Shown piece after piece: positions 13,221-47,342 of a stretch of 58,673 nucleotides of DNA. Position numbers and translations under genes: made by a program. Position 1 is the stretch's first letter, and every line of letters starts with the position of its first letter. Origin of the DNA: Alphaproteobacteria bacterium (lineage in GTDB: Bacteria > Pseudomonadota > Alphaproteobacteria > Bin95). The notes below the pieces were generated by a model that had not been told where the DNA came from, searched no databases, and was given only the letters and a program-made list of their open reading frames with translations. The stretch is taken from the NCBI GenBank assembly GCA_022826185.1, contig JAJDVH010000011.1, forward strand, positions 1 to 58,673, written 5' to 3'.

Positions 13221-13231
13221 GAGATTGTCCC

Positions 13232-14092
13232 CTACCCGGTCGAACGGACCACGAAGGCGTCTCGCGGCCCCCGCGCCTGCACACGGGACTGCAACGCATC
13301 CGCCGACCGCCTGGTCGCTTCGGGCCCGATGCGGACACGGTGCAGGACCCTGCCATTCTTTGCCGTGCTGGTGTGAACCATCACCCTGTCGAAGTGCCGT
13401 CTCAGCCTTGTCACCATGGTCTCGGCATTCTTGCGGCTGCGAAACGTACCGGCCTGCACGTAGTACACGCCCGGCCGAGGACTGCCGCCTCCTACGAACT
13501 CCGCGATGAGCTGGTCTTGTTTCCGTGCGCCGCCGCCGTTCCTTGCAATCCGGGCGACCTTGCGGCTGAGTTCGGGCAACAGTTCGACCCTCACCCTGGT
13601 GATGCCCTTGTGGCGGAATCCCACCTTCTCCGCCGCGGCAAGCGAGAGGTCGATGATACGCTCATGCGCGTAGGGGCCGCGGTCGTTTATGCGCACGATC
13701 ACGCTTCGACTGTTTTCCAAATTGGTAACGCGCACGACGCTCGGCATAGGCAGGACCCGATGCGCCGCCGTCATGGCGTACATGTTGAAGACCTCGCCGT
13801 TAGCGGTCTGGCGACTATGGAACTTATGCCCGTACCACGACGCGACTCCGGTCTCGGAAAAGGTCTCGTATTCTTTCGGACGGTACCAGCGTTCGGCGAT
13901 CTTGTACGGCTCGCCGACCTTGTAGCTGCTTACATTGTAGGTCAGCGCACGGTAGGGAGATGCCGAGACGCCAAGGCGTCTGTCCACGACCTTTCCGCTC
14001 CGGTCGCCGGTCTTCGCCGTCCGCTTGACTGTTTCGGGCGAGCTGCAGGCGCAGACAGCAAGCGCCAGAAACAGTGCAAGAGCCCGGATCAT
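13232..14092 (-). CDS. rlpA: Septal ring lytic transglycosylase RlpA (lipoprotein with SPOR domain)
   Basis: Lipobox-like VCAC, ASWYG, TANGE, AAHRVLP, INDRGP and a C-terminal SPOR domain (YVQAGTF). Confidence 0.93.
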   Translation of the reverse strand: MIRALALFLALAVCACSSPETVKRTAKTGDRSGKVVDRRLGVSASPYRALTYNVSSYKVGEPYKIAERWYRPKEYETFSETGVASWYGHKFHSRQTANGEVFNMYAMTAAHRVLPMPSVVRVTNLENSRSVIVRINDRGPYAHERIIDLSLAAAEKVGFRHKGITRVRVELLPELSRKVARIARNGGGARKQDQLIAEFVGGGSPRPGVYYVQAGTFRSRKNAETMVTRLRRHFDRVMVHTSTAKNGRVLHRVRIGPEATRRSADALQSRVQARGPRDAFVVRSTG

Positions 14093-15102
14093 CGACGCTC
14101 TCCCACTCCGTCCGATAACAGCCCGACCGTGAGCGCATACAGGTTCGAGCAGTTGTAGCGCAACAGGCTTTCGTAGTTGCGATAGATTAGGAAGGCGTCA
14201 CCGGCGGAACCGTCGGGCATGACCAGCCTGGCGTCGAGCGCCACTGCCGGCAGCGCCGCGCCGGACAAGCGGCGCACTCCGGCGGCCTGCCAGTCGTCGA
14301 GACTGCGGGGCTTCGTGGTCCGCCGCAGGGCGCGGCAACCCTTCGCCTTGCCGGCAAGCATGGATTCGTAGCTCTGCCTTATCGCCTTAGGCACCCGTAC
14401 CCCACGCCCCCAAGTGCGCGCATCCGACCAGCCATGCAGCCGGAGATAGTTGGCAATTGAGGCGAAAACATCACCGAGATTATTCCAGATGTCGCGCCGC
14501 CCGTCGCCGTCGAAATCCTGAGCGAAAGCCAGGTAGCTCGACGGAATGAACTGGGGATGGCCCATCGCGCCGGCCCAGGACCCTTTCATGTCGGCAAGCC
14601 CGATATAGCCCTTGTCCACCATACGCAGCGCATCCAGCAGCTGGCCGCGGAAAAAGCGGGAACGGCGACGATCGAAGGCGAGCGTTGCCAGCGCCGCAAC
14701 TATTTCCGTATTCCCCTTGATCGCGCCGTAGCGGGTCTCAATGCCCCAGATTGCGACGATGAAGCGCGGCTGCACGCCGTACCGGTCCGATACGCGCCGC
14801 AGCAGGCCGGCATGTTCCGCCAACATCGCCCTGCCCCGTTCGATGTTCCGGGGTTTCAGCAGGCGCGCGCTATAGGTCTCGAAGGTCAGCTTGAACTCCG
14901 GCTGCTTGCGATCGCGGTTCAGGACCTTTTCGAGTGGCCGGAGCCCGGCCAGCGCGGCATCCAGCGTGGCCGGTGAAATCCCTTTCCCGGCCGCTTCGGC
15001 CCGGAAGTCCGCCAGCCACCTGGTGAAGTCATCGGCCTGCCCGCTACCTGCGGCGCAGACCATGGCGGTCAGCACCGCAACCGCAACAGCGACACGCCGC
15101 AT
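14089..15102 (-). CDS. Lytic murein transglycosylase (MltB family)
   Basis: QPEF, AIWGIETRYG, GSWAGAMGHPQFIPSSY, DFDGDGRRD and YNCSNLYA motifs. Confidence 0.92.
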   Translation of the reverse strand: MRRVAVAVAVLTAMVCAAGSGQADDFTRWLADFRAEAAGKGISPATLDAALAGLRPLEKVLNRDRKQPEFKLTFETYSARLLKPRNIERGRAMLAEHAGLLRRVSDRYGVQPRFIVAIWGIETRYGAIKGNTEIVAALATLAFDRRRSRFFRGQLLDALRMVDKGYIGLADMKGSWAGAMGHPQFIPSSYLAFAQDFDGDGRRDIWNNLGDVFASIANYLRLHGWSDARTWGRGVRVPKAIRQSYESMLAGKAKGCRALRRTTKPRSLDDWQAAGVRRLSGAALPAVALDARLVMPDGSAGDAFLIYRNYESLLRYNCSNLYALTVGLLSDGVGERR

Positions 15103-15309
15103 CGCCTTCCCCTTGCCTGTGGGCGCGGAAACCGGCGCCCGGACGACCTTCCTGCAACCATATCGAACGATTCTGGACCTGTCGCGCCAGTCCGTTCCTG
15201 CATTGGCCGGGTCGGGTCCGCCTCGGGACTCGCCGTGTCTTTCGGGCCGTTTCCGGTTGCGCCATGATGGGTGTTGCCGAGCAAAGGATCTCGGCATGGG
15301 AGAAGAACG

Positions 15310-16151: not shown

Positions 16152-17813
16152 ATGCCCTCCCCCTCCAACACGATCAGCGGCCGCAGCGCCTTTCTTGCCG
16201 TACTCAAGGATGAAGGAGTCACGCACCTCTTCGGCAATCCGGGCACAACGGAATTGCCGATCATGCATGCGCTGACCGAGCAGAGCGATCTCGGTTACGT
16301 GCTGGGCCTCCAGGAGTCAGTGGTCGTTGCGATGGCCGACGGCTTCGCACGCGCTTCCGGCAAGCTGGCGGCCTGCAACGTCCATGTCGCGCCGGGGCTG
16401 GGGAATGCCATCGGCGCGCTCTACACCGCGTCGCAGAGCGGCTCACCGATCATCGTGACCGCCGGACAGCAGGAACAGGGCCACGGGCTTACGGAGCCGC
16501 TTCTCTATGCTCCGCTTACCCCGATGGCGGAGCCTGTGGTCAAGTGGGCCGTGGAGGTCACCAGGATCGAGGATCTGCCGCGCATCCTCCGGCGCGCCGC
16601 CAAGGTGGCGACGACTCCTCCCACGGGACCGGTCTTCATTTCCCTGCCCGGAGACATCCTGAACCGCCATGAGGCCATCGATCTCGGACAGGTCACGCGG
16701 GTCGATTCCCGCATCCGCCCCTCCGACGAGGCGCTGGCGGGCATGGCGGACCGAATCGCCGCGGCGGCCAATCCGGTCGTGCTCGCCGGCCACGAGACGG
16801 CCACCGGCGATGCGCTGGATGCCGCAGCCCGGTTCGCCGAACTGCTGGGAGCGCCCGTCTATCAGCAAAGCGTGCCGCAGGGGGCGCATTTCCGTTCCGA
16901 ACACCCCTGCTTCATGGGCGCGCTCAGCCGAAGCCAGCCGCAGGTCCGGCGCCTGCTGGCGCCCCATGATCTGATAGTCAGCCTCGGAGCCGACTTCCTG
17001 CGGATGTCGGTCTGGAGCGAAACCGACCCGCTGCCGGAGCATATGGCCGTCATCCAGATCGGCCTGAGGGACTGGGAACTCGCCAAGAACTACCCGGCCG
17101 AAATAGCTGCGCTGAGCGATGTGCGCGAAACCCTGGCGGTCCTCAATCCGCTGCTGGAGGAAAGGCTGGGCGCCAGTCGGCAAGACCGGATAGCCGCGCT
17201 CGCCGGACATAATTGGACTGCGAACCGCAGCAAGGCGTTGAGGGCCGTGGCGGAGACGGTCGAGGACGCCGATCCGATTCCGCCGGCCTGGCTCTGCATG
17301 TGCCTGGCCGAGGAGTTGCCCGAAGACGGCATTGTTGTGGATGAAGGCATCACCACCGGAGCGCGCCTCCTGGATTTCCTGCCGTTTCGGGACGCAAACG
17401 GCTATTTCGGCAATGTCTCGGGCGGGATCGGCTGGGGCATCGCCGCCGCCGTCGGCGTGCAGATCGCGCAGCCCGCCCGGCGCACCGTCGCGCTTATCGG
17501 CGACGGCAGCGCCATGTATTCGATTCAGGCGCTCTGGACGGCCGCCAACGCGCTGCTGCCGGTTGTCTTCGTCATCGCCAATAACGGCGGTTACCGTATC
17601 CTGAAGGACCGGATGAAGGCCTTTCACGACAATGATGCGCCCATCGGCATGGATTTCCGCAACCCTTCCATCGACGCCGTGCGGCTTGCGGAAGGATTCG
17701 GCATGGCTGCGACCCGCGCGGAAAGCCCGGCCGCCTTCCGAAAGGCTTACAAGGAGGCCCTCGCCGGCTCCGGCCCTGTTCTGATCGAAGCCGTGGTCAG
17801 CGTCGGCGGCTGA
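16152..17813 (+). CDS. Thiamine pyrophosphate-dependent enzyme (benzoylformate decarboxylase-like)
   Basis: FGNPGTTELP, LQESVVVAMADG and the TPP motif GDGSAMY...NNGGY. Confidence 0.88.
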   Translation: MPSPSNTISGRSAFLAVLKDEGVTHLFGNPGTTELPIMHALTEQSDLGYVLGLQESVVVAMADGFARASGKLAACNVHVAPGLGNAIGALYTASQSGSPIIVTAGQQEQGHGLTEPLLYAPLTPMAEPVVKWAVEVTRIEDLPRILRRAAKVATTPPTGPVFISLPGDILNRHEAIDLGQVTRVDSRIRPSDEALAGMADRIAAAANPVVLAGHETATGDALDAAARFAELLGAPVYQQSVPQGAHFRSEHPCFMGALSRSQPQVRRLLAPHDLIVSLGADFLRMSVWSETDPLPEHMAVIQIGLRDWELAKNYPAEIAALSDVRETLAVLNPLLEERLGASRQDRIAALAGHNWTANRSKALRAVAETVEDADPIPPAWLCMCLAEELPEDGIVVDEGITTGARLLDFLPFRDANGYFGNVSGGIGWGIAAAVGVQIAQPARRTVALIGDGSAMYSIQALWTAANALLPVVFVIANNGGYRILKDRMKAFHDNDAPIGMDFRNPSIDAVRLAEGFGMAATRAESPAAFRKAYKEALAGSGPVLIEAVVSVGG

Positions 17814-19839
17814 ACACCCCGACGGCAAGCAGCACGGCCATCAGCGCGGTCGTGGCCAGTATGCCGTAGCCAACCAGTGTGCCCGCGTGAGCCAACCCGG
17901 CAAACGCGACGATGGCGCCGGCGAGCAGGGGGCCGGCAATGCTTCCGGCGCGTTCCACCACGCGAAACGCCGCCGTGACCGTCCCGGTCCCGTGGGCTTC
18001 CGTCTCGACCCTGAAATAGGTCGGCAGGACGGCGACCTGCGGTGTCATCACGAACGACTGCCCAAGCCCGATCAGCGCGACGCCGCACGCCAGCAACAGG
18101 CTGTCCGCCGTGGCAACGAACAGCATGCAACCGACCCCTGCTGAAACGCCGCCAACCAGAATCAGGATACCGTGGTTCTGGAACCTGTCGGCTATTACCG
18201 CCGCCGCTTGATTCATGACCAGCAATACGAGGAAGTAGACCATCATCGTGCGCCCGATTGCGGCCCCGCCGAATCCAAGCGAATCGAGATAGAGCGGCAC
18301 GAGGAAGAACAGGAAGCCGGTAAGCACGATCCGCGACGGCAGCGCCGAGAGCGCCATGAATGTCATGAATTTCGGACTGCCGTAGATGCCCAGCCGCCTG
18401 CGGCGGGAGGCAGATGTCCCGGCGCTGGCTCCCACGCCCTCGTCCGGCGATAGGAAACCGAAAGCGATCGACATCGCGACGAAGACGAGCGCAGCTCCCA
18501 CGAGGAAGGTATTTTCGTAACCGAGGCGTTCGGCGAGGATTCCGCCGATAGCCGTTGCGCAGATGCTGCCGCCTCCCGTGGCAGTGACGAACACGCCGAT
18601 ATTGAGCGCCCGCCGCCGCTCCGGCGCCGTCATGGCGAGCCGGACCAGGATCGCCGCAGTGACAAGGCCGAACCCGGCTGCCGTCAGGCAACGCAACAGA
18701 ATGAGTTCGATAAAGCCGCCTGCAAACGCGGTCGCAATGAGGCCGACGCTGGTCGGCGCCATGCCGAAGAGCAAGGTGTTGCGCGTGCCGAAACGGCGAA
18801 TGAGGCCGGGAGCGAACGGCGTCGTGAAGAGCATTGCGACGACCCACACCGACATCGGCATGGCGATGGCAATGGACGCATCGATCCCGATTGAAGGGTC
18901 GTACAGGTCCCGCACGAAGAGCGGGAAGAAGGGCCGCGAAAGCTCGACGCCGAAAATGAAGAAGAAGAGGGGATATTGGACATCTCCCGCACGCAGCACC
19001 TGCACGGACCGGTAGGAACCATGTTCGGCGAACACCCGGCCTTCCCTCAATGTCTCCAACGCGGCGCTGCCGCCGGACGCCAACGCTCGGAAGCGCCGGT
19101 TGATCTCGGCGTTAATGCCGTTCATCGCGTCGATCACCCGGCCCAGATCGTCGCGTCCGCGCGTTGCGATGGATGCCGAAAAATCTCCCTCGCTAACGGC
19201 ATGCATCAACCGGCGCATCAACCCGATGGAACGGGCGACTGTCAGCGACAGCACCAGCAGGGTGAGTTCGAGCACGATGAGTACGGCGACGCACAACGAA
19301 ATGCCGATATCGGTGAAAATGCCCCCCATCGTGTTGCGGACAAACCGCCGGTCGATGCCGATCATCGCGTATCCGACCTGCTTGCCGTCATGGACCATCG
19401 GATGCGTGACGTTGTAGTCCGTATCGAAGGAAATGAATGCGCCGGCCTGCGCCTCGCTGGCGTTCGCCGCCAGGGGCTGAAACTCATCGTCCTGACTGTC
19501 TTCCGACTCTGCCAGGAACAGGACGTTGCGCTCCGGATCCGTCACCGCGAGATAGGCGACTTCGGGATGATCTGTCAGCAGATCCTCCAGATAGGTGTCC
19601 ACACCCCTCAGGTCGCCGACCGGTATGTCGAGGCTTACGGCCTTGTAGAGGTCGTTGGCGATAGAGCGGGCAAGGACATTCGCCTTGTCCTTGATGACCG
19701 GTTCCAGCCTCGTCTCGACCGCGCCCAACGCGACCCACGCCAGCACTGCGTTCGCGGCGATCAACGCTGCAACAGCCACGAATCCTATGCGGATTCCGAG
19801 CCCGGCAAGAGTCGGCGCACGGCGGCTTCCCCGAATCAT
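17797..19839 (-). CDS. MFS transporter fused to an N-terminal TM-extracytoplasmic sensor-TM-HAMP module
   Basis: N-terminal TM, ~140-aa soluble domain, TM, HAMP-like segment (SIGLMRRLMHAVSEGDFS...RDDLGRVIDAMN), then about 12 hydrophobic helices with MFS features (GGILAERLG, IADRF, GPLLAG). Confidence 0.82.
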   Translation of the reverse strand: MIRGSRRAPTLAGLGIRIGFVAVAALIAANAVLAWVALGAVETRLEPVIKDKANVLARSIANDLYKAVSLDIPVGDLRGVDTYLEDLLTDHPEVAYLAVTDPERNVLFLAESEDSQDDEFQPLAANASEAQAGAFISFDTDYNVTHPMVHDGKQVGYAMIGIDRRFVRNTMGGIFTDIGISLCVAVLIVLELTLLVLSLTVARSIGLMRRLMHAVSEGDFSASIATRGRDDLGRVIDAMNGINAEINRRFRALASGGSAALETLREGRVFAEHGSYRSVQVLRAGDVQYPLFFFIFGVELSRPFFPLFVRDLYDPSIGIDASIAIAMPMSVWVVAMLFTTPFAPGLIRRFGTRNTLLFGMAPTSVGLIATAFAGGFIELILLRCLTAAGFGLVTAAILVRLAMTAPERRRALNIGVFVTATGGGSICATAIGGILAERLGYENTFLVGAALVFVAMSIAFGFLSPDEGVGASAGTSASRRRRLGIYGSPKFMTFMALSALPSRIVLTGFLFFLVPLYLDSLGFGGAAIGRTMMVYFLVLLVMNQAAAVIADRFQNHGILILVGGVSAGVGCMLFVATADSLLLACGVALIGLGQSFVMTPQVAVLPTYFRVETEAHGTGTVTAAFRVVERAGSIAGPLLAGAIVAFAGLAHAGTLVGYGILATTALMAVLLAVGVFSRRR

Positions 19840-20588
19840 CGCCTGCTCGCTTCCGCAGCCGCCAGCTTCGCTGCGGTTTCCCGCACGGAAACGCTGTAGC
19901 CCACAAACTCTGCAAGGTCGGTATCGACCGGCGTTTCCTCCTGATCCGAATTCAACAGGTTTTCAACGCTTTGCCGCAGATAGCGCGCCGTCGTCGTCAG
20001 CTTCCACAATGCCGCGGCGGTTCCCAGCACCGCAAGCAGGCCGCTGGCGAGAAAGATGACCGCAGCCGCCTCCAGGAGCTCCTTCGTCAATCCCCCCACA
20101 ATGCTGGCGTAGCGCGCCTTGCTGTAACGAACCGCCACCCCGCCTTCGAGTTTCCCGAAATTGTTGATGACCGGCGCGCCGACGACAAACGACTCCGGGT
20201 CTTCGATACGCCAGACTTCCCCTTCGGCCTCCCGGTTGCCGTCGGTCCAGTCTGCCGGGGCCTCGGCTTTTCCGCCGTTCAAGGCATTGCCGCCATGCAC
20301 AAGCAACTTGCCGCGGGCATCGAAAATGCTGGCGGACTGGAGTTCCGGATAATCGTCGATCAGCGCGTCCACAATCGACCGGCTTTCCGCAATGTCCTTG
20401 AGCGGCAGCCCGAGGTCCACGGCCTGCCGCAAGCGACGGGAGGTATCGAGTGTCACGACCGATACCCGGGAATCGTCCAGCCCCCGCAGGATGTCACCGA
20501 ATTTCTGCTGGTTGAGCAGGATCATCAGCGCCATGGTCACTGCAAACGCACACAGGAAGGCCAGATTCAATATGACCAGCAGCCTCAT
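19836..20588 (-). CDS. Two-TM membrane protein with an extracytoplasmic Cache/PAS-like domain and no output domain
   Basis: TM-soluble-TM layout with motifs VDLGLPL and GAPVINNFGK.EGGV. Paralogue of 26619-27356. ATGA overlaps on both sides. Confidence 0.75.
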   Translation of the reverse strand: MRLLVILNLAFLCAFAVTMALMILLNQQKFGDILRGLDDSRVSVVTLDTSRRLRQAVDLGLPLKDIAESRSIVDALIDDYPELQSASIFDARGKLLVHGGNALNGGKAEAPADWTDGNREAEGEVWRIEDPESFVVGAPVINNFGKLEGGVAVRYSKARYASIVGGLTKELLEAAAVIFLASGLLAVLGTAAALWKLTTTARYLRQSVENLLNSDQEETPVDTDLAEFVGYSVSVRETAAKLAAAEASRR

Positions 20589-21595
20589 GCGGCAGACACT
20601 CCCTGACGCTCCAGACTGTAGCAAAGGAAATGTTCGATCATGGCTTCGTGCGACACACCCGCGGCGTTAGCGCCTATATTCATTGACATGGTCGTCGCCA
20701 GATTGCAGGTCACATTGAATTCGAGCAAGCGAAATGACCCGTCCGGGGCAACACGAAAATCGACACGCAGATAATCGCAGGGCTGCACCAGCCTTGTGAA
20801 CGCAAGCGCCGCCTCCTGCAATTCCTTGCACAGCGCCTTGTCCTGGAAGGGTTCGCCACGCTTTCCGGGGTCCAGGTAGCGTTTCTGACGCTCTGTCTGG
20901 ATTCCTTCCCGCAGCTCGGAGTGGTTGGCGACGGGATGCATCGCCAAAGGTCCGCCAAGCACAGGCACCGTCACGTCCAGACCCGGCGCGAGCGCCTCGA
21001 TCAACGGCTCCTCGCCCGCAGCGAGGAATGTCGAGGCCCGGGCCCGAGCCTCTTGCCAGTCGCCGCAAATGGAGCCTTCGTCGACCCCTTCGGAGTTGGC
21101 CCCGAAACGGGGTTTGACGAAATAGGGCCCTTCGAAGGCCGGCGGATCGTCGAGGTCGGCCTCGCTGACGGCCACTGTCCCCTCCGGAACCGGCAGCCCT
21201 GCGCCGCGCGCCATCAGCTTCGTAATCCACTTGTCCTCAGCCATCGCGCGGATATTCGGCGGGCTGCCGAGATAAGGAATGCCGGAGCGCGCGCACAAGC
21301 ACGAGACCAGAATTTCGGGATTGCGCACAGCCTCGCGGTTGTAGATCTGAAAGATGTAATCCGGCGCCGGGCCGCAGTTCATGCGCTCCTCGAACGCTTC
21401 GAGGCTGCCGCAGGGCTCAACCGACCGGGCCAGGCTGCGAAGGACCGAGAGCACTTCGAATTTGGTATAGAGTTCGCGTCCGTAGCGCGGATGGACCATG
21501 GGCGGCGGTTCGCTCCAGTCCTGCGCGTATTTCGCCAGATAGAGGATATCCAGTTTCCTGCGCTGCTCCTGACCGATCTGCAAAAGCTTAAACAT
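20585..21595 (-). CDS. ATP-grasp ligase, D-Ala-D-Ala ligase-like (paralogue A)
   Basis: AEDKWITK, GPYFVKPRFGANSEG, DVTVPVL, DYLRVDFR and LEFN motifs. Lacks the Ddl N-terminal GG.S.E and LHG..GEDG motifs. Confidence 0.8.
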   Translation of the reverse strand: MFKLLQIGQEQRRKLDILYLAKYAQDWSEPPPMVHPRYGRELYTKFEVLSVLRSLARSVEPCGSLEAFEERMNCGPAPDYIFQIYNREAVRNPEILVSCLCARSGIPYLGSPPNIRAMAEDKWITKLMARGAGLPVPEGTVAVSEADLDDPPAFEGPYFVKPRFGANSEGVDEGSICGDWQEARARASTFLAAGEEPLIEALAPGLDVTVPVLGGPLAMHPVANHSELREGIQTERQKRYLDPGKRGEPFQDKALCKELQEAALAFTRLVQPCDYLRVDFRVAPDGSFRLLEFNVTCNLATTMSMNIGANAAGVSHEAMIEHFLCYSLERQGVSAA

Positions 21596-21689
21596 TCTTG
21601 AAATTACCAGATGCCTGTCGCAAACGCGGCGAACCGGCTTATGATAGCCAGCCAGCCATCTTCAAGCAACGCAACGGTCGCTGATTCCG

Positions 21690-22703
21690 ATGTTCCGAGC
21701 GCTAATTCTGGCCCTCGCCGCCTGGACGGCGAGCGCCGCGGCCTCACAGGCCGACCCCTTCACCATCTACATGATCGTGCATCGCGCCGGATCGGGCGCC
21801 GATGAGGGTTTCCGAGACTACCTGAAGGCGAACGGCGTCGATGCCAGCTTCGTCTTCCGCGACATGGAGAACGACCGGTCCCGCCTGCCCGGCTATGTCG
21901 AGGAGATCAAGGCGCTGAAGCCCGATCTCGTCTATACGCAGACAACCTCGGTGACGCGCGCGGTCGTCGGTCGGCTGGAAGAGGCCGACCCGGCGAAGCA
22001 TATCCTCGACATTCCCGTCGTGTTTTCGATGGTTTCGTTTCCGGTCAGGTCGAAACTGGCGCCCGAGAATCCCGACCCTGCAGGCCCGATGCTCTCGAAA
22101 CGCAACCTGACCGGCGCCAGGCATGTGGTCTCGAATCTCGTGCGTCTCAACGCCATGCGCACCTACATGCCTTTCAAGAAGCTGGGCATGCTTTACGACA
22201 AGAGTTCGGGCGCGCAGCGCCGGTCCGAGGTGTCCATGCGCGCCCTGGCCGAAGAGGCCGGCCTCGAATTCGTTTCGGATAGCCCCACGGAACCCAAGGT
22301 CGAGCGGGACCCTGCCCAGATCGAGCCGACGCTCCGGCGCCTCAAGGCTGAAGGGGTCGACTTTCTGTATATCCCGCCATCCAATTTCTTCGGCGCCCAT
22401 GCCGAACTGGTGACCCGGACCGCAACCGAACTCGGCCTGCCGACCTTTTGCGGCGTCGAGACCCTGATCCGTTACCACTGCATGACCGGGCTGGTCAGCC
22501 CGCTGTACGCCGTCGGACAGTTCGCCGCCTTCAAGGCGGAGCAGATTTTGACGGGCGGCAGGGACCCCGGAGAGATCCCGATAGAAACGCTCTCCCGGTT
22601 CTCCTTCGTGGTCAATATGGAGACAGCTCACAAGCTGAAGGTGTATCCGCCGATGGAAATTTTGCGTTTCGCCCAGTTCATCAAGACCGGAGCCGAGTCT
22701 TGA
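21690..22703 (+). CDS. Orphan periplasmic substrate-binding protein (ABC_sub_bind/DUF534-like)
   Basis: Signal peptide, KPDLVYT, IPVVFSMV.FPV, NLTG, QILTGG.DPGEIPIE and VNMETA motifs. No permease or ATPase nearby. Confidence 0.8.
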   Translation: MFRALILALAAWTASAAASQADPFTIYMIVHRAGSGADEGFRDYLKANGVDASFVFRDMENDRSRLPGYVEEIKALKPDLVYTQTTSVTRAVVGRLEEADPAKHILDIPVVFSMVSFPVRSKLAPENPDPAGPMLSKRNLTGARHVVSNLVRLNAMRTYMPFKKLGMLYDKSSGAQRRSEVSMRALAEEAGLEFVSDSPTEPKVERDPAQIEPTLRRLKAEGVDFLYIPPSNFFGAHAELVTRTATELGLPTFCGVETLIRYHCMTGLVSPLYAVGQFAAFKAEQILTGGRDPGEIPIETLSRFSFVVNMETAHKLKVYPPMEILRFAQFIKTGAES

Positions 22704-23728
22704 TCGCCCTGAAACGTTTGGACGACAGACGCCGCGCTACTCTGAGAATTCTGTATCTCGCGCCCCACGCGCCCTCACCCGACACGCCGAAGCCTCCGGC
22801 GATTCATCCCGATTACGGGGTCCAGCCCGCTTATCAGTACGAGATATGCGACGTGCTGACCAACGGGCTCGGTCTGGACGTTGTGAGCAGTTCCGACCTG
22901 AACGCCGTGCCGCAGGCGTTCGAAGGCCGGAATTATGTCTTTTCCCTCTACAACATCGCGCCGTTTCCCAACTCCGAGGTCTATGTTGCCGCATTGGCGG
23001 CCAGAGCGGGCATAGCCTGCATGGGCGCGCCGGCAAACATACGCGCGCTCGCCGAGGACAAATGGCTGAGCAAGCTGGCGGCGCAGGCGCTGGGCATCCC
23101 GACGCCCGCCGGAAAAGTCTATGGCCCGGGCGCTCCGGTTCACGAACCGGGTTTCGATGGTCCCTATGTGGCGAAGCCGCGCTTCGGCGCTGCATCGACA
23201 GGCATAGATGCCGAGAGCGCACAGGCGGACTTCGGCGCGCTCGCGGCGCGCATTGCGCAACTCCGGGCGACTACGGACGAATGCCTCGTCGAACAGGTCT
23301 TCGGCGAGTTCGATGTGACGGTGCCGATCCTGGTCGGCGAAGACGGACCTGTGGCCCTGCCGCCCGCCACCCAGACATGCGACAGCCCCTACGGGCTCTT
23401 TACTCACCGCCAGAAACGAAAGCTCGAACCGGGCCTCACGCGGGAGTTCCCGGGCGACGAACCTTGGCTGGAGCCCATCATCGAAGATGCGCTTCGGTTC
23501 GCGCGGGCGGTTGAGCCTTACGACTATCTGCGCTGCGACTTCCGGTTCGGCCCTGCGGGCCACGCCTTTCTCGAATTCAACCTCGCCTGTTCCATAGGCA
23601 GCGCGATGGCCTTCGCCCAATGTGCCGCGCGTGTCGGAGTCTCTTCGGAAGCTCTGGTGGAGCACATTCTGGTCACCAGCCTCGACCGGCAGTGGGGTCA
23701 GGGGGCGTCCGCACCGTCGCCGAGGTAG
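22700..23728 (+). CDS. ATP-grasp ligase, D-Ala-D-Ala ligase-like (paralogue B)
   Basis: AEDKWLSK, GPYVAKPRFGAASTG, DVTVPIL, DYLRCDFR and LEFN motifs. TTG start overlaps the SBP stop (TTGA). Confidence 0.8.
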   Translation: MIALKRLDDRRRATLRILYLAPHAPSPDTPKPPAIHPDYGVQPAYQYEICDVLTNGLGLDVVSSSDLNAVPQAFEGRNYVFSLYNIAPFPNSEVYVAALAARAGIACMGAPANIRALAEDKWLSKLAAQALGIPTPAGKVYGPGAPVHEPGFDGPYVAKPRFGAASTGIDAESAQADFGALAARIAQLRATTDECLVEQVFGEFDVTVPILVGEDGPVALPPATQTCDSPYGLFTHRQKRKLEPGLTREFPGDEPWLEPIIEDALRFARAVEPYDYLRCDFRFGPAGHAFLEFNLACSIGSAMAFAQCAARVGVSSEALVEHILVTSLDRQWGQGASAPSPR

Positions 23729-26622
23729 CGCAATGCGACGGTCGTTATATCGTCGCTCTGCTCGACGCCGGTAGAGAACGCCTCGACCGACGCCCGCATC
23801 GCGTCGCAAATGGCGGCAGGCGGCGCTCCGGCAGTGGCTTCCAGTTCGGCTTCCAGACGCGGCTCGCCGAATTGCTCGCCCGCTTCGTTGAAGGCTTCGT
23901 TGACGCCGTCGGTATAGAAGAACAGTGTTTCGCCGGGCGCCAGGAGGGTTTCGCCTTCCTGGAAACTGAAGCCCGGCATGATCGCAAGCGCCAGGCCGGC
24001 ATCCATCGGCAAGGTTGATATCTGCCCTCCGGCGTCGATCCGGTAGGTCGGGTTATGTCCGGCATTGGCGAATGTCACATGGCCGGTCTCGGCATCGACA
24101 ACCGCGTAGAAGGCAGTGACGAACATCATTTGTTCGTTCTCCGCCTCCAGCATGTCGTTCAATGCCGTCAGCACCCTGGACGGAGATTCGCCGATCAGCG
24201 CCGTGGCCTTTAGCAGGGTGCGTGCGATCAGCATGAAGAACGCGGCCGGTATTCCCTTGCCCGAAACATCCGCAATGACGATCCCGATACGGCGCTCGTC
24301 GATCGCGAAATAATCGTAGAAGTCGCCGCCCACTTCCTTGGCCGGCACCATCTGGGCCGCGATCTCAACAGTGCGTTGAGGCGGCGTTTCGCGCGGCAGG
24401 ACGGAGAGCTGCAGATCATGGGCAATGGACAGCTCGCGTTCGATCGCGACAAGGCGCTCCTTGTGCTTGAGGGCCTCGCGAAGTTCCTCGACCAGTTCGG
24501 TCAGGCGGCCGTGCTGTTCGCGGATGCGCTGGGCCATTTGCTCGAACACCAGCGTGAGGGCTTCGAACTCGTCGCTCGCTCCCTCCTGTTCGAGCTGGGC
24601 GAGCTGGTCGGTGACCGCCTGCCGGGCTTCCGCGCCGACCGCCGAAGTGAGGCCGGTCATCTGCTGGCGCAGGAATCGTTCGCGCCGCCTTTGCGCCCTG
24701 CGGCGCTCCGCGGACAGGCGCTCAACCTCGCCCAACGACGTGCGGTAAGCCTCAACCGCCCTGGCGATGCGGGCGATCTCGTCCTTGCCGGCCTCCTGTT
24801 CGAGCCAGACTCCGCGCCGACCGTCGGACAGTGCTTCCAGCACGCCGATCACCCGATCGAGCGGTTGCAGCGAGCCGCGCAGGTTCGCGTAAAGGACCCA
24901 TAGTGCGATGCAGGCGAAAATCGCCACCGCTCCGAAGAAGGCGATACGCAAGGCCTCCTGCCGTGCCGAAAGCTCGCTGACGTCGGTTATGACATGAAGC
25001 GCCGCAAGCCGCCCGCCATTCAGGGCCGGGATATTCGCGGTCGTCCTGGCATAGTCGCCGCTATCGCCATCGAGCCCCTGCCAAAGCGGCGGATCGGTGC
25101 CGAAGATCAGCCCGCCTTCGCTCCCCACCAGGAACGCCTCTCCGCCGAGAACCGCCCCTGCCTCCAGCACCGCCGAGGCAAGGGGGACGCTCGCAGCGAC
25201 GATCAGCACATCGCCTTGTTCCGGGTCTCCCAAGGCTTCCGCAACTGTCCAGACAGGCTTGCCGTCAGCATCGAGGTCGCCGCCGCTTACCCGGCTGCCC
25301 GTGTCCATGATCCGCTTGGCGACACGCGGCGACAAGGGGTTCCGCCCCACGAACAGGCGTCCCCCTCCCTCTTCGGACGGATCGAAGGTCACGAGTTGTT
25401 TGAGACCGCTGCTCGTGGCGATATCTTCGATCAGCCGCGCTGCAAGCAACGCGTCTCCCGCAAGGAGCGCAGACCGGATACCCTCATTGACGCGAAGCGA
25501 AGCCAGTTGGCGCGCGACCAAATCCGTCTCGCGTTGCGACAGGGTTTTCCAGACGGTCCTCAGCGCAGTCTGGCGGTCTTCGTCATAACTCTCGGCCAAC
25601 AGGCGCTCGCGAACGATGCTGCCGTAGCCCAGGCCGATGGCCAGCAACAGCCCCCCGAGGCTTATGATGGCCGTCAGCCGCAGGCGTATCGAGATATTCC
25701 TTCCGAACCGGCCTACCGCGGTGGGGGGCGTCGGAGGAATGTCGCGGAATGTCGGTTCCAGCCGCTGAACCAGTCCCCGCCGAACGCGTTCGAGCGAATC
25801 CCGCACTGTCCGCCCGACCGCGGCATCGCGTGCGTCTTCCGCCTGATCCAGAATCGAATCGTACCGCGCCCGCAGACCGTGCAGCACCGAGTTGAATGCA
25901 CGGGCTGCAAAGCCGATTTCGTCCCGCTGCCCCAAATCCCCGAGCAGCACCGGGCGCCCGCCGGCCGCTTGCGCGATGCCGCTGTCGAGCCGTTGCAGGC
26001 GGCGGCCGACGCGCAACCCCAGGAATAGCGCGCACAGCAACCCGGCGATGACGCCGACGGCGCCCGCTATGGCGAAGCTCGGCCAGTTCCGGCGCAGAAT
26101 ATGCGTCACGAAGTCCTTTTCGACGGCGACATGCAGAAGAGCCAGCGGGTAGTCAGCCGGACCGATCGGGCGGATGTCGACGGAAAGCTCGCCGAAGATG
26201 TGACGGTTGCGGGCTTCCGTCATTCCCCCCGCCATCCGCCGCTCCTCGAAAACGGTATCGGCCGCTTCCAGAACCTCTTCGAGCCGCTCACGCGCAATGC
26301 CGCTGAAATAGACCGGTCTCTTGTCCGGCGACGTCATAGCGATAAAACGGATATCCGGATTGTCGTCGAGAAAGCGCTGGAAGAAGGGCTCGACCCCCCG
26401 AAGCTCCGCAAGCGGGATGCCGACCCGAGCGGCGCGTTCCATCTCGGTCTTCATCGCCTGCCCGACCGCCAGCGCCTTGCGGTCAAGTTCGTCGGTCAGC
26501 GGCTCTTCGGCCCACCAGTGGAAAGCAGCAGCCGTCAAGACCGCCTGCAGGAGTGCGACTATGACGGCGGCTGCGCAGGCTTTCAGCCAAATTGTTCGCG
26601 AGAGTCCGCCCATGCCCATCAT
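23698..26622 (-). CDS. Membrane PP2C/SpoIIE (RsbU-like) Ser/Thr phosphatase with two tandem TM-sensor-TM-HAMP modules
   Basis: Catalytic motifs EVGGDFYD, ADVSGKG, NAGHN, YTDGVNE and DDIT. Two HAMP-like segments (RDEIGFAARAFN; KDEIARIARAVE) and four predicted TM helices. Confidence 0.88.
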   Translation of the reverse strand: MMGMGGLSRTIWLKACAAAVIVALLQAVLTAAAFHWWAEEPLTDELDRKALAVGQAMKTEMERAARVGIPLAELRGVEPFFQRFLDDNPDIRFIAMTSPDKRPVYFSGIARERLEEVLEAADTVFEERRMAGGMTEARNRHIFGELSVDIRPIGPADYPLALLHVAVEKDFVTHILRRNWPSFAIAGAVGVIAGLLCALFLGLRVGRRLQRLDSGIAQAAGGRPVLLGDLGQRDEIGFAARAFNSVLHGLRARYDSILDQAEDARDAAVGRTVRDSLERVRRGLVQRLEPTFRDIPPTPPTAVGRFGRNISIRLRLTAIISLGGLLLAIGLGYGSIVRERLLAESYDEDRQTALRTVWKTLSQRETDLVARQLASLRVNEGIRSALLAGDALLAARLIEDIATSSGLKQLVTFDPSEEGGGRLFVGRNPLSPRVAKRIMDTGSRVSGGDLDADGKPVWTVAEALGDPEQGDVLIVAASVPLASAVLEAGAVLGGEAFLVGSEGGLIFGTDPPLWQGLDGDSGDYARTTANIPALNGGRLAALHVITDVSELSARQEALRIAFFGAVAIFACIALWVLYANLRGSLQPLDRVIGVLEALSDGRRGVWLEQEAGKDEIARIARAVEAYRTSLGEVERLSAERRRAQRRRERFLRQQMTGLTSAVGAEARQAVTDQLAQLEQEGASDEFEALTLVFEQMAQRIREQHGRLTELVEELREALKHKERLVAIERELSIAHDLQLSVLPRETPPQRTVEIAAQMVPAKEVGGDFYDYFAIDERRIGIVIADVSGKGIPAAFFMLIARTLLKATALIGESPSRVLTALNDMLEAENEQMMFVTAFYAVVDAETGHVTFANAGHNPTYRIDAGGQISTLPMDAGLALAIMPGFSFQEGETLLAPGETLFFYTDGVNEAFNEAGEQFGEPRLEAELEATAGAPPAAICDAMRASVEAFSTGVEQSDDITTVALRYLGDGADAP

Positions 26623-27356
26623 CCGATCCGGTCCAGCCGGTCGATTTCGCGCGCGTCGGTATCCATCGTGGCGAGCATTCCGGTTGCGGCCTCGTGGAAA
26701 CGGGCAAGCGATTCCGGGGCTCCCTTGAGGTCCGCCGCCTGACCTTCGGCCATCGCCAGCAGAGAGGTGTCGCTTTGCCTCAGCATGTCCAGAACGGGGC
26801 GCAACACCCATCGGGCAAACACGGAAACGAGCAGGAGGCAAATCGCGAATACGACAGCGGCGATACCGAGAACCGTGATCGTCGCGCGCTCCAGCAACGG
26901 GGCGCTGTGCCGGACTTCGCTCTCCAGCAGGACGCCGCCGACGACCTTCCCGAAATTATTGATAAGGGGGCTGCCCACGGTCACGGCCCTCTCATCGGCT
27001 TCGATCCAGCGTCCGGTCCGGTCGCTGATTTCCACCGTCGTGCCGAGGTCCGTCTGGTCGGTGGAGAACACGACCCGGCCATTGGCTCCGAAGACCAGCA
27101 GGCGGTCGATATCGGGGTCGGCGGCCTGGGTCCGGTCGAGTATGGCGGCAATCTCCGGAATGGTTTCCAGCCGGAGACCCAGATCCGTCCGGACGGTAAT
27201 TGTGTGGGCGATCTCATCGACGGTGAAGCCGAAATGAGATGTCTTGACCGTCCTGAGTTCGCGGTCGAACGTGTCCAGCGCGGCATAAACGACGAACGCG
27301 AGCGACAGGGCGACGCCAACAAGAAGCGCCAGTCCCAACTTGATCCGCAGTCTCAT
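26619..27356 (-). CDS. Two-TM membrane protein with an extracytoplasmic Cache/PAS-like domain and no output domain
   Basis: Motifs TDLGLRL and GSPLINNFGKVVGGV. Paralogue of 19836-20588. ATGA overlap with the phosphatase gene. Confidence 0.75.
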   Translation of the reverse strand: MRLRIKLGLALLVGVALSLAFVVYAALDTFDRELRTVKTSHFGFTVDEIAHTITVRTDLGLRLETIPEIAAILDRTQAADPDIDRLLVFGANGRVVFSTDQTDLGTTVEISDRTGRWIEADERAVTVGSPLINNFGKVVGGVLLESEVRHSAPLLERATITVLGIAAVVFAICLLLVSVFARWVLRPVLDMLRQSDTSLLAMAEGQAADLKGAPESLARFHEAATGMLATMDTDAREIDRLDRIG

Positions 27357-27440
27357 GATCGCCGGCCTGCTCCGCCGCCATCGACTCGGTTAATCTTAGC
27401 GCGTGCCGCCATAGCCGCGCCAGCGTCCCGCTTCACGCGC

Positions 27441-29018
27441 CTATAAGTCCCTGTCCGGTTCCGCATCCCAACACTCGCCAATCCCGCGCTCCCGCAATTC
27501 GTGGCGCGCAATCTCGTTCTTGGTCATCGTCCGCGGAAACTCATCCACGAACTCGATATAGCGCGGCGCCTTGAAATAGGCGATTCGTTCGCGGCACCAG
27601 TGGACGAGCGCTTGCGGGTCCACCGAGGCGGAAACCTGCACATAGGCCTTGATGTCCTCTTCTCCGAGATCGGAGGGCACGCCTACACAGGCGCAGTCGA
27701 CGACGGCGTCGTGGGCGGTGATCGCCTTCTCGACCTCGAAGGCCGAAACATTCTCGCCGCGCCGGCGGATCCAGTGGGCCTCGCGGCCGACAAAGTGGAC
27801 ATAGCCGTCCTCGTCGAGCCAGCCGAGGTCGCCCGAGTGGTACCAGAGATTGCGCCAGGCGGAGAGGGTTGCCTCCGGCTTGTTGATGTATTCGATCATG
27901 TAGGTGTTCGGTACTTTGGGCCGCAGCAGGAGCTGCCCGGTCGTGCCCGCCGGCACCGGGTTGTCGTCCGCATCGACGACCAGAAGCTCCGTCCATCCGT
28001 GCGGCCGGCCGCATGTGCCGATCTTGCGGTCGTGCAGCCGTTCGGAGCAGATCAGCACGCCCATCTCCGTCATCGCATACACCTCGAGCATGGGAATTCC
28101 GAACCGGGCCTCGAACTCGTCCCGCAGCTCGCGCCGGACCTGGCCCGAGGCGATGCCCACCCCGACCTTGACCCGGTGCGAGCGGTCGAGCCCGCTCTCC
28201 GGGCGGCGCAGCAGCACCGACATCATTGTCCCCAGCGGGTCGATGATGGTGGCCCCGTGGCGATGCACCGTCTCCCAGTAGCGCGAGGCGCTGAACCATT
28301 TGTGCATCACGCCCGTCATGCCCGTGTAGAGCGGCCCGGTGACGCCGAATTGCTGGCCGCCGATATGGAAGAAGTGCGAGTTGGCGAAATGCACGTCGTC
28401 CGGCCGCGCTTCGGCGATCTCCGCATAACGAATGGCCGCCGCGATGTAATAGAGGTGGGAGACGAGTACGCCTTTCGGCATGGAGGTGCTGCCGCCGGTA
28501 TAGACGATCGCAACAGGATCCGTCGGTCCGACCTGGGCCTCCGGCAACGCCTCGGAACCTGTCAGCAGCTCGTCCCAGGCGGCGTAGCCAGCGCATGGCG
28601 CGCCGTGGACCATCACTTCCGGAGGCGAGGCGAAACGGTCCGCCGCCGCTTCGCAGACATCCATCAGTTCGTCGTCGGCGACCAGCAGTTTCGCGCCGGT
28701 ATCGTTCAGGCTGTAGGCGAGGTCGTCACGGGCCAGCGACACGTTCAGCGCCGCATAGACGGCGCCGATCTTGGCGCAGGCGAACCAGATGATCTCCTGC
28801 GCCAGCGAGTTGTACATGAAGGTCGCGACGACATCGCCCTTGGCCAGGCCGCGCTCCAGGAGCGCGTTGGCGACGCGGTTCGAGAGCCGGTCGGCATCCG
28901 CATAGGTCAGTGTCTCGTCCCGGCAAATTAGCAACGGCTTGTCGCCCAGCGAAGCCCGCATCGTCACCAGGTCGCGCAGGGTGGTCGCATGCGGCGTTTC
29001 GCCCATGATGCGGATCAT
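27441..29018 (-). CDS. CaiC-like acyl-CoA ligase (AMP-binding)
   Basis: YTGGSTSMPKG, YAMTE, WYHSGD and RRRGENVSAFEVE motifs. Confidence 0.88.
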   Translation of the reverse strand: MIRIMGETPHATTLRDLVTMRASLGDKPLLICRDETLTYADADRLSNRVANALLERGLAKGDVVATFMYNSLAQEIIWFACAKIGAVYAALNVSLARDDLAYSLNDTGAKLLVADDELMDVCEAAADRFASPPEVMVHGAPCAGYAAWDELLTGSEALPEAQVGPTDPVAIVYTGGSTSMPKGVLVSHLYYIAAAIRYAEIAEARPDDVHFANSHFFHIGGQQFGVTGPLYTGMTGVMHKWFSASRYWETVHRHGATIIDPLGTMMSVLLRRPESGLDRSHRVKVGVGIASGQVRRELRDEFEARFGIPMLEVYAMTEMGVLICSERLHDRKIGTCGRPHGWTELLVVDADDNPVPAGTTGQLLLRPKVPNTYMIEYINKPEATLSAWRNLWYHSGDLGWLDEDGYVHFVGREAHWIRRRGENVSAFEVEKAITAHDAVVDCACVGVPSDLGEEDIKAYVQVSASVDPQALVHWCRERIAYFKAPRYIEFVDEFPRTMTKNEIARHELRERGIGECWDAEPDRDL

Positions 29019-40495: not shown

Positions 40496-40749
40496 CCGGG
40501 CCGGGGCACCGAATCTATCAGGCGTGCGACGACAGGATCGTCCGGCGGCTCCGCCGCCCCGGTCATCCAGTCCATGATCTCCGGGTCGGACCGGGCCAGA
40601 AGCGCCTCGAAGCGGGTGAGGTCGTCCGCATCGAGAGCGTCGAGATTGGCGTCGGCAAAGGGGCCGAGCAGCAGGTCGGCCTCCTTCGTGCCCCGGCGCC
40701 AGGCCCGGAACCGCAGCCGTTTCCGTCTTGTTTCGAGCGGGTCCTGCAC
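40492..40749 (-). CDS. sdhE: Succinate dehydrogenase assembly factor 2 (SdhE)
   Basis: RKRLRFRAWRRGTKEADLLLG motif; lies between recG and mfd. Confidence 0.88.
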   Translation of the reverse strand: MQDPLETRRKRLRFRAWRRGTKEADLLLGPFADANLDALDADDLTRFEALLARSDPEIMDWMTGAAEPPDDPVVARLIDSVPRPG

Positions 40750-40819
40750 GGCTTCGCTCCTCCCCCGGACGGGGTGTATAAATTGCCGGCCGAGCGATGT
40801 CAGCCACAGAGACGGGGCG

Positions 40820-44369: not shown

Positions 44370-44442
44370 CGGCCTTGACCCCGGTTCCACGCATCGAAAG
44401 CTGCCCGCCGCCACCGGGAGCGCCGCAGCTTCCCTTGTTCTT

Positions 44443-45935: not shown

Positions 45936-45955
45936 GACGGTTCCCTTTCCTGCTT

Positions 45956-47332: not shown

Positions 47333-47342
47333 GGCCGCGGCA

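Follow-up and report, generated by a model that had tools for sequence, protein, structure and literature searches.

The window analysed here is a 58,673-nucleotide stretch of DNA, contig JAJDVH010000011.1 of the alphaproteobacterial assembly GCA_022826185.1, and the system in question is a cluster of seven genes within it (Table 1). These genes encode a permease of the major facilitator superfamily (MFS) fused to a sensor and a HAMP domain, a substrate-binding protein (SBP) of the family PF04392, a membrane phosphatase of the PP2C (SpoIIE) type with two sensor-HAMP units, two small membrane proteins (smA and smB) and two ATP-grasp ligases (ligA and ligB). All seven had been delimited by an earlier sequence-only reading, whose gene positions stand and whose domain assignments agree with Pfam and NCBIfam. 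That reading also proposed a circuit in which the ligases make a small amide or peptide, the MFS protein exports it, and the SBP and membrane receptors sense it through the phosphatase. The linkage of the MFS, SBP, PP2C and small-protein genes is retained below, and the ligase "make" step is not.

Table 1. Genes and spacer of the cluster, with positions in the window
Feature	Position	Strand	Size and character
Sensor-HAMP-MFS gene	17797..19839	-	680 aa; Pfam HAMP and MFS_1
smA	19836..20588	-	250 aa; two transmembrane segments, no Pfam family
ligA	20585..21595	-	336 aa; ATP-grasp ligase of predicted Ddl fold
Divergent spacer ligA/SBP	21596..21689	.	94 bp; presumed home of both promoters
SBP gene	21690..22703	+	337 aa; PF04392 ABC_sub_bind, N-terminal signal-like segment
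ligB	22700..23728	+	342 aa; TTG start; second ligase of the family of ligA
PP2C gene	23698..26622	-	974 aa; double-sensor HAMP, SpoIIE-type phosphatase
smB	26619..27356	-	245 aa; small two-transmembrane sensor paralogue (predicted)

The genes form three translationally coupled units, as first proposed from the sequence, with four-base overlaps of stop and start codons at four same-strand junctions (ATGA at ligA/smA, smA/MFS and smB/PP2C; TTGA at SBP/ligB). The ligB and PP2C genes are convergent and overlap by 31 bases, and the ligA and SBP genes diverge from the spacer. The placement of both promoters in this spacer is presumptive, because a consensus scan of positions 17000-28000 found no sigma-70-like site inside it; the scan gave three promoter-like sites against 1.8 expected and five terminator-like sites against 9.2 expected. 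Conserved synteny of all seven genes, both ligases included, extends to 13 related loci from alphaproteobacterial metagenome-assembled genomes (MAGs) and to the congener G312 (protein identity 64-93%), and parts of the set recur across phyla, so that the arrangement is not a product of chance.

The conserved core

A profile built from 20 SBP orthologues was run over 401 sampled alphaproteobacterial genomes, and the SBP subfamily was found in 24 of them at a score of at least 236 bits, the next best match reaching 164. About 8 kb was fetched on each side of 20 such places in 19 of the 24 genomes. The order small protein, sensor-HAMP-MFS, SBP, on one strand and often with overlapping gene ends, occurs in 15 of these 20 alphaproteobacterial loci. 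In a phylum-wide sample, the subfamily is present in 9 of 401 Pseudomonadota genomes (E≤1e-50); the seven new places from this sample contain the MFS and SBP genes together in six cases, three of which include a PP2C gene and none a ligase. Over both samples of Pseudomonadota genomes, SBP and MFS genes are adjacent in 21 of the 27 SBP-centred loci. The core of the cluster comprises the small protein, the MFS protein with its sensor and HAMP, and the PF04392 SBP, and is a translationally coupled, widespread and previously undescribed envelope module.

A PP2C gene adjoins the MFS and SBP genes in 10 of the 21 loci (7/15 alphaproteobacterial, 3/6 from the phylum sample), and several of these loci are a single same-strand run of small protein, MFS, SBP, small protein, PP2C and STAS genes. 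About half of the loci thus have a second small paralogue and a sensor-HAMP-PP2C phosphatase added to the core. Loci with a STAS gene next to the PP2C gene number four among the 15 alphaproteobacterial ones and five overall (L117, L118, L119, L128 and L142). These counts bear out the earlier proposal that the MFS, SBP, PP2C and small-protein genes are functionally linked. Co-occurrence of all seven proteins had been named as the sign to look for; it was found for these four types, and for the ligases it is restricted to four lineages. In our judgement, the SBP, the two receptor pairs with their permease, and the PP2C very probably form one system, to which the ligases are optional.

Two loci at the edge of the count deserve mention: L113, a Zavarzinia locus with ligase and PP2C genes, was left out of the 15 because the fetched stretch ends inside its MFS gene, and at L114 the stretch ends, on the other side, with the SBP gene. 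L121 possesses a second small protein and, in place of the PP2C, a sensor-cyclase. In three loci (L130:2381-9063, L131 and L132) a more distant SBP (28-31% identity) and a longer small protein (about 345-375 aa) come directly after BatA-D-like genes with VWA and TPR domains, and no MFS gene is present. The module is also carried by chromids of Azospirillum brasilense and A. argentinense and by a Vibrio replicon. The A. brasilense replicon has the order small protein, MFS, SBP, GNAT-like gene (L148:6111-10660), and that of Vibrio sp. THAF190c has small protein, sensor-MFS, SBP (L149:6076-9924); neither stretch is annotated in the PLSDB records. Four loci (L113:9033-10019, L114:7009-7938, L118:3764-4663 and L125:1119-1820) have a Sel1-repeat gene within or next to the module, and in Zavarzinia-type loci this gene stands between the SBP and small-protein genes.

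Sensor modules and the two receptors

The two products that the sequence-only reading listed simply as small transmembrane (TM) proteins do have two TM segments each by hydropathy, and are more than generic membrane proteins. smA and smB share 29% identity (E 1e-17), and a 20-member profile of the small proteins aligns by hhalign with the first ~190 residues of the MFS-protein profile (97.8%, E 1.1e-12, 175 columns). In hmmsearch, the small-protein profile matches residues 16-213 of the MFS protein (iE 2e-10) and the N-terminus of the PP2C protein (iE 5.8e-5), and the N-termini of the MFS and PP2C proteins are themselves related (24% identity over 90 residues, E 7e-9). Judged by these alignments, the small proteins are free-standing paralogues of the TM-sensor-TM module of the receptors.

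The predicted model of smA (pLDDT 80.5) begins with a TM helix that continues as a long periplasmic helix; an alpha/beta domain follows, then the second TM helix and two cytoplasmic helices. Foldseek matched this model to the sensor domains of WalK, KinD, CitA, DcuS and Tlp3 (E 1.8e-8 to 1e-3; TM-score by target up to 0.67), with a TMq of 0.67 over 256 columns for WalK, and the named Atlas clusters nearest to smA by features are sCache_3_2 and Cache_WalK. The modelled domain resembles the sensor fold of the PDC/sCache type. At the level of curated sequence families, smA and smB match neither a Cache or PAS family nor any other Pfam family at E≤0.01; precomputed matches to PF02743 or PF17203 exist for a few MFS-protein orthologues.

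Among 1.84 billion representative sequences, the small-protein family has 1842 members at E≤1e-3, 982 at E≤1e-10 and 166 at E≤1e-30. The best 150 representatives include 136 free-standing proteins of 215-306 aa and 13 proteins of at least 401 aa that match the profile in two or three stretches. All eight long representatives tested (782-999 aa) combine a small-protein module, a second, more divergent module and MFS_1, in one case also with HAMP, and two other long representatives are tandem fusions of two small proteins. Natural gene fusions are a classic sign that separate proteins act in one complex, and on this ground we read the separate smA-type and MFS proteins as one complex, a heterodimer of which the fusions would be the covalent version.

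The MFS protein is organised, according to hydropathy and Pfam, as a TM helix (residues ~20-38), the PDC/sCache-like periplasmic module, a second TM helix (~178-196), a HAMP domain directly after it (197-240; 26.1 bits against the Pfam cut-off of 25), a variable linker and the permease. MFS_1 covers residues 292-637 with 106.9 bits (cut-off 33.4), placing the protein in the superfamily, and many hydrophobic segments occur between residues 291 and 673. In an alignment of the orthologues, the linker between HAMP and permease differs in length by up to ~33 residues among lineages, which favours a docking role over gating through a rigid helix. A homologue search with residues 1-290 returned 59 proteins, all of them orthologues (53-99% identity), and is uninformative as to other outputs of this sensor.

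The PP2C protein consists of a TM segment, sensor 1, a TM segment, HAMP, a TM segment, sensor 2, a TM segment, HAMP, a coiled region and the SpoIIE-type PP2C domain; the four TM segments seen by hydropathy are consistent with a double sensor, and HAMP is matched in two stretches (39.7 bits). The catalytic domain is identified by SpoIIE (PF07228) at residues 775-966, with 175.4 bits and profile positions 1-191 of 192 covered, and the best NCBIfam match, SiaA, remains far under its equivalog cut-off (85.7 bits against 700). This is the sole SpoIIE-type phosphatase of the window genome (G000), which is rated 100% complete. Eight other contigs of the genome carry STAS-domain matches (11 per model), and two strong HATPase_c_2 matches are candidate RsbW-like kinases; the HATPase_c_2 match inside the window was considered for the same role and rejected, the protein being NtrY. 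In relatives, a STAS gene of 112-113 aa follows the PP2C gene (65.6 and 70.1 bits), which suggests that the output of the phosphatase is most likely dephosphorylation of a STAS partner-switching protein.

Ligases and other accessory genes

ligA and ligB are 40% identical (E 3e-69) and match Dala_Dala_lig_C weakly (32.5 and 23 bits against a cut-off of 24). The ligA model (pLDDT 93.8) has Pseudomonas aeruginosa DdlB as its top Foldseek match (TM 0.77/0.82, 22% identity), and a 55-sequence profile of the family matches Ddl and VanA with E values up to 8.9e-20. In an alignment of 12 sequences to DdlB, whose N-terminal domain is aligned with uncertainty, the residues K97, K144, E180, R255, D257, E270 and N272 (E. 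coli DdlB numbering), which serve ATP/Mg binding and catalysis, are invariant, whereas the omega-loop (K215/Y216) and the C-terminal S281/L282 region of the D-Ala site are replaced by the family motifs TxRQKR and LEFNxxCN(L/I). Both proteins fall far below the Ddl cut-offs, with 50 and 38.2 bits for TIGR01205 (cut-off 245.65) and 59.3 and 35.3 bits for PRK01372 (cut-off 243). ligA and ligB are thus predicted to be active ATP-grasp ligases of an uncharacterised family and not spare Ddl enzymes, since the genome encodes a canonical Ddl elsewhere, on contig C88, with 279.3 bits and over the cut-off.

The distribution of the family was examined in a scan with one genome per species, in which 77 loci from 160 relatives were kept and the neighbours were identified by tblastn with the window proteins. 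The MFS and SBP types accompany the ligase in 25 of these loci, 45 have neither, and seven are incomplete or short. Among the 25 are 16 loci of alphaproteobacterial MAGs from the window lineage (13 with the full seven-gene set, besides L016, L020 and L030), five from Myxococcota, three of Burkholderiales type together with L028, whose short contig includes no more of the MFS gene than its tail, and Zavarzinia; L022, a short contig of similar kind, was counted with the seven partial loci. The ligase profile was also run over 19 module-bearing genomes and found true members (385-446 bits) only in the congener of the window and in a Zavarzinia-like genome; five weak matches (66-83 bits) are in the range of ordinary Ddl, and 14 genomes have no ligase-family match at E≤1e-15. 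Of these 14, 12 are at least 90% complete with at most 5% contamination, G141 is 81% complete and G352 has 7% contamination. Seen from the SBP, no ligase gene lies within ~8 kb in any of the 21 loci with MFS and SBP genes. The ligases co-occur with the module in four lineages (that of the window, Zavarzinia, Burkholderiales MAGs and Myxococcota) and are therefore accessory rather than noise, a lineage-specific addition that the core module can dispense with.

A second type of accessory is a GNAT-like gene, which immediately follows the SBP gene in four alphaproteobacterial loci out of the 15 (L115, L117, L118 and L121) and in two of the six from the phylum sample. Four of five members of this family match Acetyltransf_1 (best E 5.1e-5), and comparison with the PDB gave weak matches to GNAT acetyltransferases, including phosphinothricin and YncA types (E 0.005-1).

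These data bear directly on the make/export/sense loop of the sequence-only reading, in which the ligases, or the GNAT-like enzyme elsewhere, would make an amide or dipeptide that the MFS protein exports and that the SBP and the receptors read through the PP2C in a quorum-like manner. Such a loop would explain why ligases are co-translated with both divergent units and stand alongside MFS and SBP genes in the 25 loci of four lineages, and why a GNAT-like gene follows the SBP gene in L148, in the four alphaproteobacterial loci and in two of six phylum-sample loci; it would also suit the MFS domain, which resembles models of drug/H+ antiporter type in 14 of 16 orthologues, and it recalls bacilysin, whose BacD and BacE are a pair of L-amino-acid ligase and MFS exporter. 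Against it, the supposed synthetic enzyme is missing from most of the system's occurrences: the 21 SBP-centred loci include 15 with neither a ligase nor a GNAT-like gene within ~8 kb, 14 module-bearing genomes have no strong ligase match, and 45 of the 77 ligase loci are without MFS and SBP genes. Moreover, the tightly coupled SBP and the OprO/P-type porin of the myxobacterial loci (below) suit uptake at least as well. The ligases accordingly no longer stand as the defining "make" step, and we consider the loop improbable. The accompanying remark that LuxI/R is absent is correct, as no LuxI/LuxR or precursor-peptide family was found among the seven proteins, which do not qualify as a quorum-sensing system by family content.

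The ligase-bearing loci differ in their make-up. L016 and L020 (both labelled Gammaproteobacteria) have both ligases, and their sole PP2C gene adjoins a second small-protein/MFS pair; together with L019 of the same label (ligA 75-76% identical), they show this second small-protein and sensor-MFS pair beside a shorter PP2C (32-33%; e.g., L016:14341-19507). L030 contains two ligases and an MFS gene without sensor, and lacks a PP2C gene. In the Burkholderiales-type MAG loci L025, L031 and L032, a Cache-like sensor fused to a cyclase and a cyclic nucleotide-binding (cNMP) domain adjoins the module, on the same strand in L031. The five long myxobacterial loci have the one-strand order OprO/P-type porin, small protein, MFS, ligase, SBP, with a second long MFS gene opposite. 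In one close relative, the SBP gene of the cluster is in fragments (L012:9492-9907), and another contig of the same MAG carries a ligA and SBP pair alone (L014:8897-10999).

A quick maximum-likelihood tree of the family was built from 95 rows, namely 92 translations of tblastn high-scoring segment pairs (at least 250 residues), ligA, ligB and E. coli DdlB as the outgroup. It recovers clades of ligA (17 rows), ligB (18), myxobacterial (7), nif-linked (23) and mostly Bacillota (17) sequences, all with SH-aLRT 100, and a Burkholderiales clade (5 rows) with SH-aLRT 99; the deep nodes are left unresolved.

The nif-linked ligases adjoin SBP_bac_6 and ABC ATPase genes in regions with nitrogenase component 1-type genes (e.g., L078:9133-13905). 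They occur at L039, L040, L049, L050, L053, L059, L063, L065, L070, L072, L076 and L078, in Rhodospirillales and Rhizobiales that include Rhodopila, Magnetospirillum, Xanthobacter and Methylocella. This context was considered as evidence for uptake and set aside, the substrate of that transporter being unknown. In 18 further loci (a subset of L042-L077), a gene of ~770 aa with a weak TPR match converges on the ligase gene, the two overlapping slightly (e.g., L052:10010-13318 and L048:9986-14190). Their hosts are Bacillota, Bacteroidota, Melainabacteria and Eremiobacterota MAGs, Enterococcus caccae and E. plantarum. RimK-like ATP-grasp and tyrosine recombinase genes are often near these ligases, so that the unit of ligase and ~770-aa gene may be a mobile cassette.

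Binding protein, transport and proposed mechanism

The SBP belongs to PF04392, which it matches with 61.7 bits (gathering score 25.9) over profile positions 7-289 of 293, and it is the only protein of this family in the window genome. Its best NCBIfam match is TrpX, at 70.1 bits against an equivalog cut-off of 390. No ABC (ATP-binding cassette) ATPase gene was found within 5 kb of the SBP gene in any locus with MFS and SBP genes, permease genes not having been searched separately, and the nearest one in the window is 19 kb away. The solved proteins of the family bind L-Trp, L-Tyr or L-Phe according to Table 1 of PMC10443332. By analogy with them, and because the accessory enzymes are of amide-forming types, the ligand of the present SBP is probably amino-acid-like.

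One could suppose that this SBP serves an ABC importer encoded elsewhere and lies here by chance, and that the ligases are spare D-Ala-D-Ala ligases of peptidoglycan synthesis. The family is indeed named for ABC substrate-binding proteins, TrpX is the closest named model, and the ligases are nearest to Ddl in both sequence and fold. An ordinary importer role is nevertheless made unlikely by the uniqueness of the SBP in its genome and the lack of a nearby ABC ATPase gene, to which the adjacency of SBP and MFS genes in 21 of 27 loci and the distance from the TrpX cut-off (70 bits against 390) are added. The replaced omega-loop and second-site motifs, and scores of 50 and 38 bits next to a canonical Ddl of 279 bits on another contig, speak in the same way against spare Ddl enzymes. 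This explanation is hardly credible and already largely refuted.

Our preferred reading, which we advance tentatively and rate at slightly below an even chance, is that one SBP with an amino-acid-like ligand serves two heterodimeric receptors, one for MFS transport, likely uptake, and one for PP2C/STAS switching, while the ligases process the compound in the cytoplasm. In each receptor, a small protein would join the sensor module of its neighbour, smA that of the MFS protein and smB that of the PP2C, and the ligand-loaded SBP would dock on both. On the MFS complex, the SBP would hand over the substrate or gate its transport; on the PP2C complex, it would switch the phosphatase, which would then dephosphorylate a STAS-domain protein encoded elsewhere in the window genome. 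The ligases, one co-translated with each of the divergent units, would form an amide bond on the transported compound, and in some other lineages it is the GNAT-like acyltransferase that occupies this position after the SBP gene.

We lean towards uptake as the more likely direction of transport because of three features taken together: the uptake systems TRAP (tripartite ATP-independent periplasmic) and TTT (tripartite tricarboxylate transporter) likewise have an SBP gene coupled to the gene of a secondary transporter, the myxobacterial loci include a porin of OprO/P (anion) type, and the linker between HAMP and permease is variable. Comparison with named families is less one-sided. None of the MFS subfamilies efflux DHA, ACS, AAHS and MCT is matched over its cut-off, the window protein reaching at best 42.5 bits against 395; no NCBIfam model attains its curated cut-off in any of 16 orthologues, and the MFS domain alone has no match among PDB sequences at E≤0.01. 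Below the cut-offs, uptake-type models are matched with a frequency similar to that of the efflux models, namely SfMCT (14 of the 16 orthologues), the D-galactonate type (10) and the aromatic acid symporter type (9).

Several observations weigh against the proposed mechanism, or against parts of it. The most frequent and best NCBIfam match of the 16 orthologues is the "multidrug resistance protein" superfamily TIGR00880 (14/16, best E 5e-21), and the Cmx/CmrA efflux model matches 11; the sub-cut-off matches are thus mixed between efflux and uptake, so that the direction of transport is not readable from them and, on these models, is not settled. A HAMP domain conserved at the joint of sensor and permease points to signalling or gating, and less to a plain hand-over of substrate. 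The pairing of smA with the MFS protein and of smB with the PP2C is itself a prediction, and between the SBP and the solved amino-acid binders there is no more than a distant relationship (3lft, E 8.7e-7). Inside the window, no STAS or kinase gene for the PP2C was found. Finally, 11 of the 15 alphaproteobacterial loci have neither a ligase nor a GNAT-like gene, so that processing in the cytoplasm does not belong to the system in general.

The predicted docking of the SBP counts on both sides. A three-chain prediction that joined the mature SBP, as the scored partner, to the sensor domains of the MFS protein and smA gave 0.48 (runs of 0.50, 0.45 and 0.48), graded as "weak support". At least 78% of the contacts agree between runs, the partner pLDDT is at least 85, and the best control reached 0.25 (smA replaced), two controls with replaced partners scoring 0.00. 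When the tool was calibrated, 58 of 80 solved complexes and 2 of 110 mismatched pairs attained the mark; those that did so with scores of 0.60 or under were only seven of the 80 solved complexes, along with both mismatches. The model thus gives a hint of docking on the smA/MFS sensor pair, at a score where false passes outnumber true ones unless the complex was likely beforehand.

The ambiguity of the permease leaves room for a different role, in which the SBP would detect a noxious amino-acid analogue or similar compound in the periplasm, the signal would open the MFS protein as an efflux pump, the PP2C would trigger a stress response, and the ligase or GNAT-like enzymes would inactivate the compound in the cytoplasm. 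A HAMP domain set between sensor and permease, the efflux-type similarities of the MFS domain and the likeness of the GNAT-like accessory to phosphinothricin and YncA types, though only at E 0.005-1, all suit such a role, and PP2C partner switching commonly controls stress sigma factors. However, no resistance-type family was matched over its cut-off, the variable linker opposes tight gating, the myxobacterial porin is hard to account for, and most loci lack any modifying enzyme. We regard this role as quite improbable. Returning to SBP-dependent uptake with a parallel switch, its boldest form would make the smA-type protein, the sensor-HAMP-MFS protein and the PF04392 SBP a third class of SBP-dependent secondary transporter after TRAP and TTT, the permease taking its substrate from an SBP docked on a heterodimeric Cache-HAMP platform, with the same SBP driving the PP2C switch through a paralogous platform; this we hold to be possible, if unlikely.

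Each element of the system has known relatives, among them SBP-dependent receptors, sensor-transporter complexes and HAMP-PP2C phosphatases such as SiaA. ChvE, with GguAB and VirA, and maltose-binding protein, with MalFGK and Tar, each serve a transporter and a receptor. The SBP gene of the present cluster likewise lies between transporter and receptor genes, and the same loaded SBP is proposed to act on both; unlike in those systems, the transporter is an MFS protein fused to its own sensor-HAMP and not an ABC system, the output is a PP2C and not a histidine kinase or chemoreceptor, and an obligate small paralogue accompanies each receptor. LuxP-LuxQ and TorT-TorS are SBP-dependent sensor kinases, which the orphan SBP beside a membrane receptor with a PAS/PDC-like periplasmic domain resembles, docking being weakly supported by prediction; they differ from it in that here no histidine kinase is present, the SBP is of PF04392, and there are two outputs, a permease and a phosphatase.

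With DctPQM of TRAP and TctCBA of TTT, the cluster shares an SBP gene coupled to the gene of a secondary transporter and a small accessory membrane protein. It belongs to neither class, the permease being MFS_1 and not DctM/DctQ or TctA/TctB, the SBP PF04392 and not DctP or TctC, and the accessory a predicted Cache-like sensor paralogue in a system with HAMP. DcuS forms co-sensing complexes of sensor and transporter with DctA or DcuB, and here too a PDC-type periplasmic sensor is tied to a secondary transporter, with DcuS and CitA among the fold matches; the difference is that sensor and permease are one polypeptide, the sensor being N-terminal, and that there is no kinase. The PP2C arm has the membrane sensor, HAMP and PP2C of SiaA/RsbU/SpoIIE-type phosphatases, and STAS genes adjoin it in relatives, but, unlike SiaA of SiaABCD, it has two tandem sensor-HAMP units, a small partner protein and an SBP, and the window contains no siaBCD-like genes. 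The nearest conceptual neighbour found in the literature is an Amt-HAMP-cyclase receptor, presented in PMC11152129 as one in which a transporter-like module is the input.

Searches of the open-access literature and bioRxiv returned no description of a Cache/HAMP-MFS fusion, an SBP-dependent MFS protein or this gene set, in keeping with the view of the sequence-only reading that no characterised pathway has this composition. That literature offers no account of an MFS permease fused to a Cache-like sensor with HAMP, of a PF04392 protein dedicated to it, of the obligate small paralogue or of the PP2C arm in parallel, and databases name the sensor-MFS protein "MFS transporter" and the Atlas clusters nearest to the small protein "hypothetical protein". 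To our knowledge, MFS permeases are regarded as independent of binding proteins, and HAMP is regarded as a coupler to kinases, cyclases or chemoreceptor tips. A conserved Cache-HAMP-MFS family, invariably accompanied by a small receptor paralogue and its own binding protein, would add a new way of tying a transporter to the periplasm and, if uptake does depend on the SBP, a new transporter class in which one ligand is wired to both uptake and signalling. Nor is the module rare, as the genome counts given above for the SBP subfamily (24/401 and 9/401) and the 982 small-protein representatives at E≤1e-10 attest. It occurs in the genetically tractable A. brasilense, and in the window genome it would supply an input route to the PP2C partner switch, whose phosphatase is the only one of its type there.

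The genes around the cluster were considered separately. Flanking genes for a thiamine pyrophosphate (TPP) enzyme and an acyl-CoA synthetase were rejected as parts of the system, being syntenic in close relatives only (64-96% identity) and absent from all distant module loci. A link to peptidoglycan through the nearby dacC, rlpA and mltB was likewise discarded, since unrelated genes intervene and the three are part of a housekeeping run. This run, at positions 10463-15297 of the window, matches families of DNA polymerase III delta type, thymidylate kinase, D-Ala-D-Ala carboxypeptidase, lytic transglycosylase/SPOR and SLT transglycosylase. On the other side, positions 37067-52352, likewise of housekeeping character, contain Mfd-, HflX-, TrkA- and NtrY-like genes and two genes for sigma-54 activator response regulators, none of them linked to the cluster.

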